Positions 2,815 to 32,027 of a stretch of 64,000 nt of DNA are shown here, one piece after another (position 1 is the stretch's first letter; the number at the start of each line of letters is the position of its first letter). Under the pieces are notes generated by a model. It saw nothing but the letters and a program-made list of their open reading frames with translations, was not told the origin of the DNA and did not search any database. Both the position numbers and the translations under genes were made by a program. The stretch is taken from assembly GCA_044506615.1 (NCBI GenBank), contig JBIQKJ010000001.1, positions 218,434-282,433 of the forward strand. The letters are read 5' to 3'. This DNA is from Chloroflexota bacterium (lineage in GTDB: Bacteria > Chloroflexota > Limnocylindria > Limnocylindrales > CSP1-4).

Positions 2815-3720
2815 CTAGCGTCGCTGCCGAGTTCGTTCGGCAGGCCTCGCGACGAGAGGCACGCGCGGATCGGTCTCCATCTCGGCCCACGACTGAGCCA
2901 CCCAAGCCAACGCGGGATCGAACGAGCACGCCATGGTCCGGTGCTCGCCAGCAAGCGCGTTGAGGTAGTACGCGTCATCGCCGTGGGCCGCCACGAACGG
3001 GTGGTAGCCGTCCGGGACGATGACGACGTCGCCGTCCCGAACCTCGAAGGTCGCGTCGAGAGGCCCGTCCCGCGCGAACCGGGCGCCGCCCCGCCGGTAC
3101 ACCCGTTGCATTCCCCAGGCGTCCGGCCGCGCGAACCGGTAGTGGTAAACCTCCTCCAGGACGGCCTCCCCCGGCAGGTCGTCCACGTCGTGCTTGTGTG
3201 GCGGCCACGATGACCAGTTGCCCGACGGCGTCAACACCTCGACGGCGAGCAACCGAGCGGCCGGGAACGACGGCTCGATGATGTGGTTGATCTGCCGCGT
3301 CGCGTTGCCGGCCCCCCGTGTCTCGACGCGGACATCCTGCGGTGTGACGATCAGCGGGCGTCGCGCGACCGGCCTGCCTTCCACGGGAGGCGCCCACGCC
3401 ACCGCGACCTGGGTGGGACCCCGGGCCTCGAGCTCGACCCGCCAATCCGGCGGCACGTACATCGCCGAGGGGAGCCCGTCGAACGGAGTGGCGCGTCCCT
3501 GGAGCTCGCCGACCGACCGGACGGTGACGTCCGGGCCGGCGAGCAAAACCACGACGGCCTCCCGATCCCCGGAGTCGAGACGCGACGTCGGTGTGTCGAG
3601 CTGTCCGACCTCGAACGACAGAAAGCGCCACCCGGCGTCGGCCGGGGTGACGGCGACGCTTCCACGCGAAGCGCGCCGATGGAGCTGGACAGCGGGGACC
3701 GTTCGCGCCGGGCCGGTCAC
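2815..3720 (-). CDS. iolB: 5-deoxy-glucuronate isomerase (IolB family)
   Basis: TPSGNWSSWPPHKHD, LEEVYHY and GYHP motifs. GTG start overlaps the upstream stop. Confidence 0.88.
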   Translation of the reverse strand: MTGPARTVPAVQLHRRASRGSVAVTPADAGWRFLSFEVGQLDTPTSRLDSGDREAVVVLLAGPDVTVRSVGELQGRATPFDGLPSAMYVPPDWRVELEARGPTQVAVAWAPPVEGRPVARRPLIVTPQDVRVETRGAGNATRQINHIIEPSFPAARLLAVEVLTPSGNWSSWPPHKHDVDDLPGEAVLEEVYHYRFARPDAWGMQRVYRRGGARFARDGPLDATFEVRDGDVVIVPDGYHPFVAAHGDDAYYLNALAGEHRTMACSFDPALAWVAQSWAEMETDPRVPLVARPAERTRQRR

Positions 3721-27133: not shown

Positions 27134-28199
27134 CCGGGGCGCCGGGCGCCCCCGGCTCGTCGACCGCTACGCGGCGTTCCTGCCGGTCAGCCCGGCCACG
27201 CCGGTCCTGAGCCTCGGCGAGGGGTTCACGCCGCTCGTCCGGCTGGCGCGGCTCGGGGCCGAGCTCGGGATCGGGAACCTCTACGCCAAGGTCGAGGGAC
27301 AGAACCCGACCGGCTCGTTCAAGGACCGCGGCATGGTCGTCGCGGTCTCGAAGGCGCTCGAGGCCGGCGCTCGCGCGATCATCTGCGCGTCGACCGGCAA
27401 CACGTCGGCGTCAGCGGCTGCGTACGGCGCGGCTGCCGGGCTCGAGGTCGTCGTCGTCCTGCCCAAGGGTCAGATCGCGGTCGGCAAGCTGCTCCAGGCG
27501 CTCGTCGCGGGGGCGCGCGCCGTCGCGGTCGACGGCAACTTCGACCAGGCGCTCGGCATCGTCCGGGCGCTCGCCGAGCAGGACGACCACCCGGTCACGC
27601 TCGTCAACTCGGTCAACCCGCACCGGATCGCCGGCCAGAAGACCGCCGCGTTCGAGATCTGCGACGACCTCGGGCGCGCGCCGGACATCCTCGCGATCCC
27701 GGTCGGCAACGCCGGCAACATCAGCGCGTACTGGGCGGGTTTCCGCGAGTACGCCGGTGCCGGCCGGATCGACGCGCTCCCGCGGATGTGGGGGTTCCAG
27801 GCCGCGGGCGCCGCGCCGCTCGTGAGCGGGCACCGGGTCGAGCGACCCGAAACCGTCGCGACCGCGATCCGGATCGGCGACCCGGCCTCGTGGGGGACCG
27901 CGATCGCGGCGCGCGACGAGTCGGACGGTCTGATCGACGCCGTCACCGACGACGAGATCCTCGCGGCGTATCGAGACCTGGCGCGGTTCGAGGGCGTCTT
28001 CTGCGAGCCGTCGTCCGCGGCGAGCGTCGCGGGCGTGCGCAAGGCCGCGGCTGCGGGCCGGGTACGCGAGGACGCGGTCGTGGTGTGCGTGCTGACCGGG
28101 CACGGGCTCAAGGACCCGACGACCGCCGAGCGGACCGTCGGACCGCTCATCGAGGCCCAGGCGACGATCGGCTCGGTCGCCGTGGCGCTCGGCTGGTAG
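27126..28199 (+). CDS. thrC: Threonine synthase
   Basis: [18 protein letters not shown] and PVGNAGN motifs. Confidence 0.95.
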
Positions 28200-28207
28200 G
28201 GGCGGCC

Positions 28208-29170
28208 GTGGTCACGCATTGGCTCGCCGAGCTCGACGGCCGCCGGGCGGTCGTCGAGGTCCCGGCAAGCTCGGCCAACCTCGGCGCCGGCTACGACTGC
28301 CTCGGGCTGGCGCTCGGCATCGTCAATCGCGTGGCGCTCGAGGTCCGTTCCTGGAGCCGCGGCCGGGTCGAGCTGTCGGTCGACGGGGAGGGCGTCGGCG
28401 AGATCGGCGAGAGCCGCGACAACCGGTTCGTGCGCGGCGTCGAGGCAGCGATGGAGGCGGTCCACGGCCCGATCCCCGACGGCGTCGGCTGGCGGGTCGA
28501 GATGCGCAACGAGATCCCGCTGGCGCGGGGCCTCGGGTCCTCGGCCGCCGCCACGGTCGGCGGGCTGCTGGCGGGCAACGCCCTGCTCGGCGACCCGCTC
28601 GACACCACCGCCCTCCTCGGGCTCGCGTCGGCGATCGAGGGTCACCCCGACAACGCCGCGACCGCGCTGCTCGGCGGGTTCGTCGTCTCGGCCGCGACCG
28701 AGGAGGGGGTCGAGGCGGTTCGGTTCGACGTTCCGCGCGACCTGCGGGCGGTGCTGTTCATCCCGGAGCTGCGCCTGTCGACATCGGCGATGCGGGAGGT
28801 GCTGCCGGCCGACGTTCCGCGGGCCGATGCGGTCGCAAACCTCGCGGCCGCGGCGATCGGCGTGGCCGGCATCGCGACGCGCCGGTACGAGCTGCTCGGG
28901 CGGCTGACGGTCGACCGCCTCCACGAGCCGTACCGCGCGGCGGCCTACCCGCAGCTGCCGCGGCTGGTCGGCGCCGCGCGCGAGGCGGGCGCGCTCGGGG
29001 CGTGCCTGTCGGGCGCCGGTTCGACCGTGATCGCCTTCGCCGACTCCGTCGCGAGGATCTCGCGGATCGAGGCGGCGCTGCTCGCGGCCGCGGCCGACAC
29101 CGACCTGCCGGGGCGTGTCACGGTCGCCAGGCCGCGCAACGCCGGGGCGTCGGTCGTCGAGCGGACGTAG
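28208..29170 (+). CDS. thrB: Homoserine kinase
   Basis: PASSANLGAGYD, PLARGLGSSA, EGHPDN and LSGAG motifs. Confidence 0.93.
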   Translation: MVTHWLAELDGRRAVVEVPASSANLGAGYDCLGLALGIVNRVALEVRSWSRGRVELSVDGEGVGEIGESRDNRFVRGVEAAMEAVHGPIPDGVGWRVEMRNEIPLARGLGSSAAATVGGLLAGNALLGDPLDTTALLGLASAIEGHPDNAATALLGGFVVSAATEEGVEAVRFDVPRDLRAVLFIPELRLSTSAMREVLPADVPRADAVANLAAAAIGVAGIATRRYELLGRLTVDRLHEPYRAAAYPQLPRLVGAAREAGALGACLSGAGSTVIAFADSVARISRIEAALLAAAADTDLPGRVTVARPRNAGASVVERT

Positions 29171-29208: not shown

Positions 29209-29321
29209 ATTCCGCACGTGTCATGCGATTCGCCATCAGCACGCACGACCGTCTCGCGATTCCTGCGGTTTCGGTCGAGGGTCACGCTCGCTACGGCCGA
29301 TCCTGATGAAGCGCGTGGAAT
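29209..29321 (-). repeat. 113-bp imperfect palindromic element, copy 1
   Basis: Ends ATTCC...GGAAT. Its reverse complement aligns to 30583-30695 (83/113 identical ungapped, counted by hand). Confidence 0.85.
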
Positions 29322-29324
29322 ACC

Positions 29325-29504
29325 TCAGCGCACCAGGCGCCAGGCGACGACGACCAGGAGCCCTGCGCCGACGAGCCAGAGCCACCCGCCCGGGATGCTG
29401 GCGAACGCGCCGCCGATGCCGGTGAGCGCCCCCTCGAGCGCACCGCCGACCCCGTCGAACAGGCCGCCGATCGAATCACCGACCGAGCGGCCCAACCCCT
29501 CCAT
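29325..29504 (-). CDS. Small Gly-rich membrane protein (59 aa)
   Basis: MEGLGRSVGDSIGGLFDG...GWLWLVGAGLLVVVAWRLVR. GC-rich third codon positions; CACACT 6 nt upstream. Confidence 0.65.
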   Translation of the reverse strand: MEGLGRSVGDSIGGLFDGVGGALEGALTGIGGAFASIPGGWLWLVGAGLLVVVAWRLVR

Positions 29505-29525
29505 GCGCGGAGTGTGCGCTCGGCG

Positions 29526-30284
29526 TCAAGCCACGCCGATGAACCGGCGCACCTCGTCCCAGGCGGCGGCGCTTGCGTCCGCGAACTGCTCGGCCTTGCG
29601 GTCGAAGAAGCTGTGCGGCGCGCCGTGGTACTCGACGAGCCGATGCTCGACCCCGGCCGCGCTGAGCGCGTCGTCGAACGCTCGCACGGACGTGGGCGGG
29701 ATCGCCGGGTCCGCGCCGCCGAACAGTCCCAGGATCGGGGCGCGCATCTCGTCGGCGAGCTCGGCCGGGGCCGGCGTCCCGGCACGGTGCGGGCCCACCG
29801 GCACCCCGTAGAACCCGATGGCCCCGGCCAGGTCCAGCCCCATCGTCGCGCTGAGGAACGCCAGCCGGCCGCCGAAGCAGAAGCCGACGGTGTAGATGGC
29901 TTCGGGCGCGGGGTCGGCGCGTCGCAGCTCGGCGATGCCCGCGCGGATGTCGGCCCGGAGGCCCTCGTAGGTCGCCTGCTCGACGTGCGCCATGTGCTCG
30001 AACTCGTCGCCCCGCGGCCCGGTGCCGGCCGTGCGACCGAAGTAGTCGATGGCGACCGCATCGACCCCGATCTCCGCGAACCGGAGCGCGAGCTCCTCGT
30101 AGTACGGGTGCAGCCCGCGGATGTCGGGGAGGACCAGCATGCCGATGCCTGCCCGCGTCGTCGGCCGTGCCCGGAAGGCACGGAGCCGCGCGCCGTCCTC
30201 GGCGGTGAGCACGATCTCCTCGGCGTCGAGGGCGCCGCCCGCGATCGGCTCGATCGGCGGTCGGTCGTCGGGCGTGAAGCACAT
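29526..30284 (-). CDS. Dienelactone hydrolase family protein
   Basis: PDIRGL, GFCFGG, D and HSF catalytic elements. Confidence 0.9.
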   Translation of the reverse strand: MCFTPDDRPPIEPIAGGALDAEEIVLTAEDGARLRAFRARPTTRAGIGMLVLPDIRGLHPYYEELALRFAEIGVDAVAIDYFGRTAGTGPRGDEFEHMAHVEQATYEGLRADIRAGIAELRRADPAPEAIYTVGFCFGGRLAFLSATMGLDLAGAIGFYGVPVGPHRAGTPAPAELADEMRAPILGLFGGADPAIPPTSVRAFDDALSAAGVEHRLVEYHGAPHSFFDRKAEQFADASAAAWDEVRRFIGVA

Positions 30285-30291
30285 CGGTCGG

Positions 30292-30537
30292 CTACTCCTC
30301 GGTCGGTGCCTGGCGGTCAGCGTCGTCGGCGCGACGCTCGCCGCCCTGGGCCGGCGGCGTCCAGGCATGGTCGGCGTAGCGCAGCTGGCGCTGCTGAAGG
30401 TCGGTCAGGCGGTCCTGCTCGGCGCGGGCGAGCTCGAGCTCGTAGGCGCGCTCGTCGGCCTCGACCTCGGCCGGGGTGGCGGGCGGTCCGGAGGCGCGGT
30501 CGTCCCTCCCGCCCAGGAGCCGTTTGAGGAAGCCCAT
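30292..30537 (-). CDS. Hypothetical protein (81 aa)
   Basis: MGFLKRLLGG N-terminus. TACGAT upstream; codon bias fits a real gene. Confidence 0.65.
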   Translation of the reverse strand: MGFLKRLLGGRDDRASGPPATPAEVEADERAYELELARAEQDRLTDLQQRQLRYADHAWTPPAQGGERRADDADRQAPTEE

Positions 30538-30582
30538 CGCGCGGCCATCGTACCGGAGCCGCCCACGGGTCAGGCGTCCGTC

Positions 30583-30695
30583 ATTCCCCACGGTTCATCG
30601 AGTTCAGGCTCAGCGAGCGTGACCCCCAGTCGATTCATGCAGGATCGGTCGACGGTCGAGCATGCTGATGGCGAATCCCATTCCACGTGCGGAAT
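30583..30695 (+). repeat. 113-bp imperfect palindromic element, copy 2
   Basis: ATTCCCCAC...GTGCGGAAT; inverted relative to 29209-29321. Confidence 0.85.
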
Positions 30696-30758
30696 ACAAG
30701 GGGCGGAACGAACCGCCCGGGCCGGCCCGAACCGACCCGCTGCTAGAATCCCGCGGTC

Positions 30759-32027
30759 ATGCCTGCCCGTCCCTCGCTCGTCGTCCAGAAGTTCGGCGGT
30801 TCGTCGCTCGCGGACGCCGACCGGATCAAGCGCGTCGCCCGCCGCATCGCCCGTGAGCGGGCCGCCGGCCACGACCTCGTGGTCGTCGTCTCGGCGATGG
30901 GCGACACGACCGACGAGCTGCTCGGCCTGGCCGCCGCGATCACCGACGACCCCGACTTGCGCGAGCTCGACATGCTGCTCGCGACGGGCGAGCACCAGAG
31001 CGCCACGCTCGTGTCGATGGCGCTCCACGCGCTCGGCGTCCCGGCGATCTCGCTGACCGGTCCCCAGGCCGGGATCACGACCGACGGCCGCTACGGCCGG
31101 GCGCGCATCGCCGACATCGAGCCGCGTCGCGTGCGCCAGGAGCTCGACAACGGCAAGGTCGTGATCGTCGCCGGCTTCCAGGGCCTCGCTGCCGACGCCT
31201 CCCTCGATGCCGAGATCACCACGCTCGGCCGTGGCGGGAGCGATACCACCGCGGTCGCCCTCGCCGCCCGGCTGCAAGCCGACCGCTGCCAGATCTTCAC
31301 GGACGTCCGCGGCATCTACACCGCGGACCCGCGGCTCGTCGCCTCGGCCCGTCAGCTGCCGATCGTCGGTTACGAGGAGATGCTCGAGCTCGCCCACCAG
31401 GGCGCCCAGGTCATGCAGACCCGCGCGGTCGAGCTCGGCTGGGTCAACGACGTCGTCATCGAGGTCCTCAGCTCGTTCGAGGACGCCCCCGGCACGCTCA
31501 TCACGGAGGACCCGCTCGTGGAACAGCGCAACAAGGTTCGCGGGCTGGCCCACGACCGGAACGTCGCGAAGCTGACGCTGGTCGAGGTGCCGGACCACCC
31601 CGGCGTCGCGGCGCAGGTCTTCGAGCCGCTCGCGGACGCCGGCATCAACGTCGACATGATCGTCCAGAACGTCGGCCACCACGGCGCGACCGACCTGTCG
31701 TTCACGATCCCGCAGGTCGAGCTCGCCCGCGCCAAGCGCCTGCTCGAGCCGATCGTGCGCGACCTCGGCTTCCGCGAGCTCACGACCGACACCGCGGTGG
31801 CCAAGGTCTCGATCGTCGGGGCCGGGATCCAGAACGCACCGGGCTACGCGGCACGGATGTTCCGGACCCTGGCCGAAGCGGAGGTGAACATCGAGATGAT
31901 CTCGACCTCCGAGATCCGGATCACGACGATCATCGCCGAGGACGCGCTCGAAACCGCGCTTCGCGCGCTCCACGCGGCGTTCGAGCTCGAGCGCCCCGAG
32001 GCCATCGAAGCCGCAGCGGCCGGCTGA
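30759..32027 (+). CDS. lysC: Aspartate kinase
   Basis: VQKFGGSS, VSAMGDTTD and LGRGGSD motifs; two ACT domains. Confidence 0.95.
   Translation: MPARPSLVVQKFGGSSLADADRIKRVARRIARERAAGHDLVVVVSAMGDTTDELLGLAAAITDDPDLRELDMLLATGEHQSATLVSMALHALGVPAISLTGPQAGITTDGRYGRARIADIEPRRVRQELDNGKVVIVAGFQGLAADASLDAEITTLGRGGSDTTAVALAARLQADRCQIFTDVRGIYTADPRLVASARQLPIVGYEEMLELAHQGAQVMQTRAVELGWVNDVVIEVLSSFEDAPGTLITEDPLVEQRNKVRGLAHDRNVAKLTLVEVPDHPGVAAQVFEPLADAGINVDMIVQNVGHHGATDLSFTIPQVELARAKRLLEPIVRDLGFRELTTDTAVAKVSIVGAGIQNAPGYAARMFRTLAEAEVNIEMISTSEIRITTIIAEDALETALRALHAAFELERPEAIEAAAAG

Follow-up and report, generated by a model that had tools for sequence, protein, structure and literature searches.

The window analysed here, a 64,000-nucleotide (nt) stretch of the genome of a Chloroflexota bacterium (G000; an assembly of 3,483,106 bases in 33 contigs, 72% G+C and 86% complete), holds two inverted 113-nt palindromic elements, copy A and copy B, in the spacer between a thrB-like and a lysC-like gene. 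These copies are members of a family of 19 dispersed repeats, itself a branch of a larger superfamily of palindromes whose members flank a single-copy gene for a protein with a helix-turn-helix (HTH) domain and a predicted PD-(D/E)xK nuclease domain. We lean, by a modest measure, towards the reading that the elements are REPIN-like non-autonomous palindromic repeats, served in trans by this XRE-HTH/PD-(D/E)xK nuclease and not by a REP-associated tyrosine transposase (RAYT).

The 113-nt palindromes and their copies in the genome

An earlier inspection of the window by eye of a model (below, the sequence-only reading) had described A and B as an inverted pair with ATTCC...GGAAT ends, each able to fold into a long imperfect hairpin, and both the repeat search and folding agreed with this description. 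The copies are 113 nt each, 73% complementary (83/113) and separated by 1261 nt; both start with ATTCC and end with GGAAT, and their pairwise alignment holds all three common strings named in that reading. When copy B was compared by BLAST with the whole 3.48-Mb genome, copy A was recovered at E = 1.4e-15, so that the similarity of the two is far beyond chance. Each strand of A and B was predicted to form a long imperfect hairpin with a minimum free energy of -41.1 to -47.5 kcal/mol (z = -0.96 to -1.81). The fold energy alone is unremarkable, since 9-31 of 200 dinucleotide shuffles folded equally well or better.

A count of copies, which the sequence-only reading had proposed as a check, gave 19 in the genome. 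The iterated nhmmer search converged on these 19 copies, each covering model positions 1-113, and MAFFT aligned them in 113 columns with zero gaps, at a mean pairwise identity of 67% (range 57-98%). Conserved blocks alternate with variable stretches in this alignment, the blocks being ATTC(C) at positions 1-5, TTCAT at 12-16, CAGCGAGCGTGACCCTC at 29-45, GGGTCGAGCGTGCTGA at 71-86, CCATTCC at 96-102 and CGT..GGAAT at 104-113. The terminal inverted repeats ATTC...GAAT are invariant in 19/19 copies. The flanks are biased as well, with T at -1 (15/19), G at -2 (10/19), A at +1 (17/19) and C at +2 (17/19). The usual flanked form, GT-ATTCC...GGAAT-AC, measures 117 nt if GT...AC is counted; this could represent a TA duplication within GTAC or a plain 117-nt palindrome, and the sequence alone fits both.

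The only close pairs of copies, C26b/c (94% identical) and C4a/b (98%), have their flanks duplicated too, and are thus local tandem duplications. All 19 copies were found to be intergenic: eight (including A) lie between convergent genes, five (including B) between divergent genes and six between genes in tandem. These contexts were taken from a call of open reading frames (ORFs) based on G+C content at third codon positions, with thrB added by hand after the Pfam search. The six tandem-context copies are split into two sense and four antisense to the genes, so that the copies do not keep to one orientation relative to the genes, as would be expected of a leader or a terminator. On contig C28 (G000:C28:43337-43380), to the right of the copy at 3001-3113 of locus L043, the last 5 nt of the element and 16 nt of its flank are repeated in tandem; this unit of ~21 nt is present between two and three times and directly adjoins the copy.

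The flanked HTH-nuclease gene and the wider superfamily

Among the explanations offered by the sequence-only reading, a non-autonomous MITE- or REPIN-like family (MITE, miniature inverted-repeat transposable element) is the one that held: the family has 19 members in G000, three of which flank a gene for a candidate cognate nuclease. Of the cognate transposase or nuclease for which that reading would have looked, neither DDE_3 nor Y1_Tnp gave a match, but this candidate nuclease gene is present. This gene (G000:C26:29604-30431) lies on a contig other than that of the window and encodes a protein of 276 amino acids (aa). One copy of the family lies upstream of it (29404-29516) and two lie downstream (30447-30559 and 30605-30717), all three in one orientation, antisense to the gene. 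The palindromes and the nuclease gene are therefore linked by position.

Searches of Pfam, NCBIfam and PDB sequences with the 276-aa protein returned an XRE-type HTH only (HTH_31 in Pfam). In the AlphaFold2 model, with a mean predicted local distance difference test score of 89, residues ~90-246 match PD-(D/E)xK folds (VIA-align, Z 8.8-9.0 over 104-119 residues), namely those of Upx (Z 9.0, 117 aligned residues, root-mean-square deviation 3.1), XisH (2okf; Z 9.0), AF1548 (Z 8.8) and NucS (2vld; Z 8.8). Foldseek matched the nuclease domain to the R2 endonuclease domain with E = 4e-5, and in structure the HTH domain came closest to restriction-modification controller proteins and HipB. Residues H91, E112, D125, E140 and K142 are invariant in 14/14 orthologues, and the C-terminal region is also conserved. 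With an E...D...ExK motif on a restriction-endonuclease-like fold in the model, the protein is predicted to be a PD-(D/E)xK nuclease. It resembles XisH (the excision-controlling factor of the fdxN element), NucS and AF1548 in the fold of this domain and in the motif; however, no similarity was detected at the sequence level, and the protein has an XRE-HTH at its N-terminus and a conserved C-terminal region in addition. The common fold does not show a common function.

Superfamily palindromes with the same core and other ends flank the orthologues of G023, G061 and G062, 46-54% identical to this protein, as well as a 40%-identical orthologue in G018. G061 has two such genes, each with its own end type of palindrome. 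In G034 and G020 repeats flanking the nuclease gene were seen by BLAST only. On metagenome contigs, a palindrome lies within ~200 nt of the gene at 17 of 18 loci, on both sides at 8 of the 18, and at one locus none was found. Here and below, a match to model R2 was counted as a superfamily palindrome. The 18 loci are the 20 retrieved minus two which matched the HTH alone and were dropped before counting, and they correspond to about 11 independent groups, as several are near-identical sequences from different samples. In 22 same-family genomes, scored at E <= 1e-30 for the nuclease and E <= 1e-4 for an R2 match, both were present in 5 and both absent in 14, with the nuclease alone in 1 and the palindrome alone in 2; the genomes compared are kin, so these counts are not independent and independence is overstated. 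In the neighbouring family, with genomes of 1.1 Mb, the nuclease was found in 0/24 genomes, and the element in 0/24 with R1, the profile of the 113-nt family, and 0/14 with R2.

The right-hand neighbour of the C26 gene is conserved alongside it in G023 and G029, which argues for a fixed and not a jumping locus and points to vertical inheritance. No relatives of the nuclease were found in the plasmid or phage collections searched. When 120 other genomes, sampled evenly across the phylum, were searched for the nuclease, a single one had it at E <= 1e-30, and the nuclease-palindrome system is thus patchy, not phylum-wide. The protein collection gave 402 clusters at E <= 1e-20 among the 8000 candidates scored; the named ones among them are all "HTH regulators" (e.g. 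"helix-turn-helix transcriptional regulator") or hypothetical, and those homologues with a name that come closest carry the labels Chloroflexota, Anaerolinea or Limnocylindrales. About 45 of the 120 relatives listed are known from contigs of ~0.9-1.5 kb only, which would fit assembly breaks at flanking repeats, although short contigs are the norm in this collection. A second HTH-nuclease copy in G000 (G000:C29:172052-172822), 41% identical to the first, is interrupted by a TGA in frame. Its nearest matches are the proteins of G001 and G002 (46-48%), two of the five same-genus genomes compared (G001-G005, 66-90% complete), and it may be a decayed gene of the type found in the genus.

Weaker full-length matches to R1 were obtained in 7 of 36 other same-family genomes. 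The superfamily of ~110-nt palindromes to which they belong shares the core GAGCGTGRCC-N29-GGYCGAGCGTG, and its ends differ from genus to genus. A scan for the exact pattern in one genome per species returned at least 117 stretches, most of them apparently chance matches in high-GC coding DNA, and is no census of the superfamily. Among the stretches listed, about 16 were complete elements as judged by nhmmer and by eye, all in Chloroflexota bins, with the labels Chloroflexia, Anaerolinea, Limnocylindrales, Thermomicrobiales or Chloroflexota. The alignment of 49 elements from 14 sources revealed a single architecture, in which an end motif of the form X-N4-6-X' is followed by a spacer, the 5' arm of the core, ~29 nt centred on TCCG, the 3' arm of the core, a spacer and the inverted end motif.

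RNAalifold predicted 18 pairs for these 49 elements, 10 of them with compensatory changes. Four core positions are non-Watson-Crick (G-T in 35/49, A-G in 37/49, G-A in 39/49 and T-G in 39/49), and all four are Watson-Crick together in 7-9 of the 49 elements (G023, G061). Such a joint flip fits pairing within one strand; it fits equally a rule by which a pair of GAGCGTG motifs, whichever way they point relative to each other, is read on the DNA duplex.

Repeats inserted later than the genes of the thrB-lysC spacer

The features of the spacer are collected in Table 1. The sequence-only reading had seen A and B as brackets around three minus-strand genes without a transposase, and had considered the site of an inserted or invertible cassette. 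Three minus-strand ORFs do lie within plus-strand thrB and lysC flanks, but the shortest is doubtful as a gene; no transposase was found in the DNA between copies A and B. Inverted copies flanking minus-strand genes in an otherwise plus-strand thr/lysC run speak for a cassette. However, the cassette fails on comparison with relatives that lack the repeats and keep the genes, and on the kinship of the copies themselves.

Table 1. Repeat copies and genes in and around the thrB-lysC spacer (positions in the window; for the repeats, the strand is the family orientation)
Feature	Position	Strand	Remarks
thrB-like GHMP kinase frame	27788..29170	+	GHMP_kinases_N and GHMP_kinases_C at frame residues 220-432; true start downstream, uncertain
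Repeat copy A	29209..29321	-	between convergent 3' ends of thrB-like gene and 59-aa ORF
59-aa ORF, doubtful gene	29328..29504	-	outside repeat; glycine-rich, hydrophobic C-terminus; no Pfam family; unique in genome
Dienelactone-hydrolase-family gene	29529..30284	-	Pfam DLH, E = 4.9e-33; kept in place and orientation in G002-G005
81-aa ORF	30295..30537	-	no Pfam family; homologous DNA at same place in G001-G005
Repeat copy B	30583..30695	+	divergent spacer; 45 nt upstream of 81-aa ORF ATG, 63 nt upstream of lysC ATG
lysC-like aspartokinase gene	30759..32027	+	AA_kinase and ACT domains

R1 gave no match in any of the five same-genus genomes. Four of them (G002-G005) hold the hydrolase and the small gene between thrB and lysC, so the adjacency of thrB and lysC in relatives, which the sequence-only reading had suggested checking, was not observed there. 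In G003 the stop codons of thrB and the hydrolase gene overlap, the hydrolase and the small gene point the same way as in G000, and only a short spacer follows up to a conserved TAGAAT immediately ahead of lysC; neither A nor B nor the 59-aa ORF would fit in. In G002, G004 and G005, 41-76 nt stand against ~380-400 nt in G000, in the gap between BLAST matches that holds copy A and the 59-aa ORF; the ~300-340 nt bearing these two are absent from this place in G002-G005. The hydrolase is missing from the thrB-lysC region of G001, and G002 and G004 have ~1.7-1.9 kb of extra DNA ahead of lysC. Elsewhere in the genome, both flanks of the C30:152046 site abut in G004, and ~133 nt are missing at the C14:237251 site in G004 and G005. 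The element is accordingly absent from same-genus genomes at 4/4 sites examined (A, B and these two), and the repeats were inserted later than the gene arrangement. Both the hydrolase gene and the 81-aa gene belong to the ancestral content of the spacer and were not brought in as cargo of the repeats.

Neither of the copies A and B has its nearest kin in the other: A is closest to C33:86205 (81%) and B to C30:152046 (74%), against 73% between the two. They did not therefore arise by local inverted duplication, and are independent insertions. Contigs of four other metagenome runs from two studies, ~98-99% identical to G000, span A and B in a single orientation; they differ from it by a handful of substitutions, and in three of the runs B has lost 2 nt at 30600. 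No joint skipping or flipping the block was found in these contigs, where joint sides of 20-32 nt were used and rare variants would be invisible; the second orientation expected of an invertible block was thus not seen. At a different point of this lysC spacer, G005 carries a palindrome of another lineage (G005:C43:82194-82315) with a second, partial one behind it, and the thrB-lysC spacer is a spot where such DNA accumulates. With the evidence of relatives, kinship and runs contradicting it, an invertible or inserted three-gene cassette retains next to no probability, and the annotation of A and B should be that of dispersed repeats and not of the borders of a cassette.

Several further observations were made in the spacer. 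The 59-aa ORF, in a stretch of ~200 nt and at a distance of 3 nt from copy A, is perhaps not a gene; its third codon positions hold only 3 of 7 strain differences. In run X2, a near-identical strain has a 21-nt insertion duplicating adjacent sequence at window position 30310, towards the 3' end of the 81-aa ORF, whose frame it keeps (7 codons). A TAGAAT box (window 30744-30761) precedes the lysC ATG by 9 nt; its conservation in G003 and G005 suggests a leaderless or nearly leaderless lysC mRNA, and the end of copy B sits 48 nt upstream of it. The GC-rich hairpin GGGCGG...CCGCCC (window 30701-30718, minus strand) abuts the right end of copy B, and a GC-rich hairpin just past the 3' end was also noticed at several other family copies, which may reflect a target preference or merely neighbouring terminators. 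A scan for promoters and terminators found no promoter-like site and one terminator-like hairpin, next to B.

Known systems, rival explanations and the proposed role of the nuclease

REPINs are doublets of REP sequences which form hairpins and are served by single-copy RAYTs (Bertels and Rainey, PMC3337134, PMC5581495; Di Nocera et al., PMC3733652). Compared with this system, the elements of G000 are likewise ~100-nt non-coding palindromes dispersed between genes, and a single-copy chromosomal gene is likewise flanked by repeats (three copies at the C26 gene; 17/18 metagenome relatives). A further likeness is an associated gene at a fixed locus across genera combined with a lineage-specific repeat sequence. 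As an inverted doublet of a REPIN forms one long hairpin, so the whole 113-nt element is an imperfect palindrome. The differences are equally clear. The enzyme here is an XRE-HTH protein with a predicted PD-(D/E)xK nuclease domain, not a Y1/HUH transposase, and the Pfam family Y1_Tnp was found in 0/6 element-bearing genomes (G000, G023, G035, G061, G062 and G063). The 113-nt consensus contains no GTAG or CGTC tag, nor the complement of either; in addition, the hairpin centre is conserved and the ends vary, and the copy number is low (19). With both the tag and the Y1 transposase missing, the palindromes were not filed as REPIN-RAYT.

The elements also have the traits of MITEs, being short, non-coding, multi-copy and intergenic, with terminal inverted repeats. 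ERIC, Correia/NEMIS and RUP-type MITEs are families tied or attributed to DDE transposases. Like these, the 113-nt elements are imperfect palindromes in the range of 100-130 nt, intergenic, with short terminal inverted repeats and possibly TA junctions; unlike them, they have an internal core, and not termini, common to the lineages, and no DDE_3 match was found in G000. Integron attC sites, which carry R''/R' core sites of the form GTTRRRY, were tried as a further candidate, and by this motif the elements do not fit: GTTCATC in the consensus places C at a purine position, and the complementary RYYYAAC is missing.

The reading that we favour is that the HTH-nuclease plays towards these palindromes the RAYT-like role known for REPINs, as a different kind of enzyme. 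The protein would bind the symmetric ends of the palindrome and cut the element, or its hairpin or cruciform form, either of which may be the active one; cutting would lead to the copying or moving of repeats in trans. Several observations weigh against this reading. We infer from position and co-occurrence alone that the nuclease mobilises the repeats, and the two do not pair perfectly: with the models and the pattern, no flanking palindrome was found at the orthologues of G029, G031, G035, G001, G002, G005, G033 and G014, nor at the TGA-interrupted copy of G000. The gene of G020 has no model match, G016 and G022 have matches and no gene, and in G063 elements are present with a 33%-identical paralogue as the sole relative of the nuclease. 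Clean empty-site junctions were not recovered from the alignments with same-genus genomes, which are too diverged. The contigs of the four other runs contain no insertion polymorphism, hence no sign of current activity, and the copies are old, dispersed pairs being at most 81% identical. Finally, an exact length of 113 nt at 67% identity is unusual for decaying selfish DNA; this hints at selection after insertion, in which case the host may use the elements.

The last observation fits the view that the palindromes are binding sites and not mobile DNA, i.e. operators or host-adopted structures of a length kept by selection (exact in 19/19 copies despite their divergence), with the HTH protein as a regulator or nucleoid-type factor. 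The symmetric end motifs do resemble operators for a dimeric HTH protein, the HTH domain is structurally closest to controller proteins and HipB, and the five divergent promoter spacers, including that of B, would be suitable places. However, the eight copies between convergent 3' ends have no promoter, same-genus genomes, in which the neighbour genes are conserved, lack the elements in the corresponding spacers, the predicted catalytic motif of the nuclease is intact in 14/14 orthologues, and the strain variant of B is short by 2 nt; we regard this view as unlikely. An ordinary MITE family seems improbable too. In that case the elements would be deletion derivatives of a classical insertion sequence (IS), e.g. 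of the IS630/Tc1 type with TA duplicated in GTAC, whose master is missing from the 86%-complete assembly, and the nuclease gene would be a mere frequent neighbour. The ATTCC/GGAAT terminal inverted repeats and the T/A and G/C biases of the flanks, readable as TA duplicated inside GTAC, can be cited for this, as can the frequent loss of repeats and IS copies from metagenome bins. On the other hand, GT...AC is itself palindromic and maybe just part of the inverted repeat. DDE_3 and Y1_Tnp were not found in G000 at its 86% completeness, other transposase families not having been searched for, and no larger unit with the same ends was found there, matching end pairs 40-4000 nt apart enclosing no candidate. 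Across lineages the ends change and the core stays, the opposite of what is expected for a terminal repeat bound by a transposase, and a palindrome stands beside 17 of the 18 nuclease genes on metagenome contigs.

Alternatively, the dispersed copies could be solo relics of a palindrome-nuclease-palindrome unit that moved as a whole, the gene being removed by recombination between direct repeats as in solo long terminal repeats. The flanking copies have the same orientation in G000, G023, G062 and most metagenome loci, which would allow such a deletion. But the gene is single-copy with the same neighbour in three genera, no second intact unit exists in G000, and at least 16 separate whole-unit insertions, each followed by a deletion, would be needed, which makes this history distinctly improbable. 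A structured RNA, acting once transcribed as a small RNA or a cis-acting hairpin, had been another suggestion of the sequence-only reading, and we now consider it very unlikely. The potential for a long hairpin speaks for it, as do the covariation of stems across lineages and the excess of G-U over A-C pairs on the strand as aligned (~132 vs 25 over the 18 predicted pairs, 74 of the 132 from two core pairs that also set the orientation). Yet covariation across lineages is equally expected of a DNA palindrome, and within the 19-copy family the covariation test, which the earlier reading had proposed, detected none (0.154 vs 0.148 shuffled, with 148/500 shuffles reaching the score). In the full palindrome model 77.6% of the cells of the 19 copies pair, against 76.8% after shuffling, and RNAalifold on these copies gave only 9 invariant core pairs. 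Natives were no better folded than half-swap chimeras (means of -46.1 vs -47.6 kcal/mol for top-strand RNA, natives better in 8/19), with the same result on both strands and with RNA or DNA parameters, indicating that the hairpin potential lies in the conserved consensus and not in compensating changes. Rfam 15 gave no match at E <= 1 on either strand (3 kb here and 17 related loci), and the orientation of the copies is not tied to the neighbour genes, as seen from the tandem contexts.

A bolder form of the favoured reading is that several Chloroflexota lineages have a second, independent REPIN-like partnership, in which a domesticated single-copy nuclease recognises lineage-specific ends, cuts the extruded hairpin or cruciform at the core with its fixed G-T and A-G mismatches, and copies the palindromes round the chromosome, A and B being products of this process. 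We put this forward tentatively, as conceivable though somewhat more doubtful than not. A limited full-text literature search returned no paper pairing an HTH/PD-(D/E)xK nuclease with palindromic repeats. Bacterial genomes commonly contain long palindromic repeats, but the enzyme that spreads them is known mainly for REP/REPIN sequences, where it is the RAYT transposase; here a similarly designed repeat family is linked to a protein that joins a restriction-type nuclease to a domain for DNA binding. If it is true that this nuclease mobilises the repeats, it would represent a new way for non-autonomous DNA to persist, and the protein with its DNA site would make a ready pair in which to test for cutting specific to sequence and structure.

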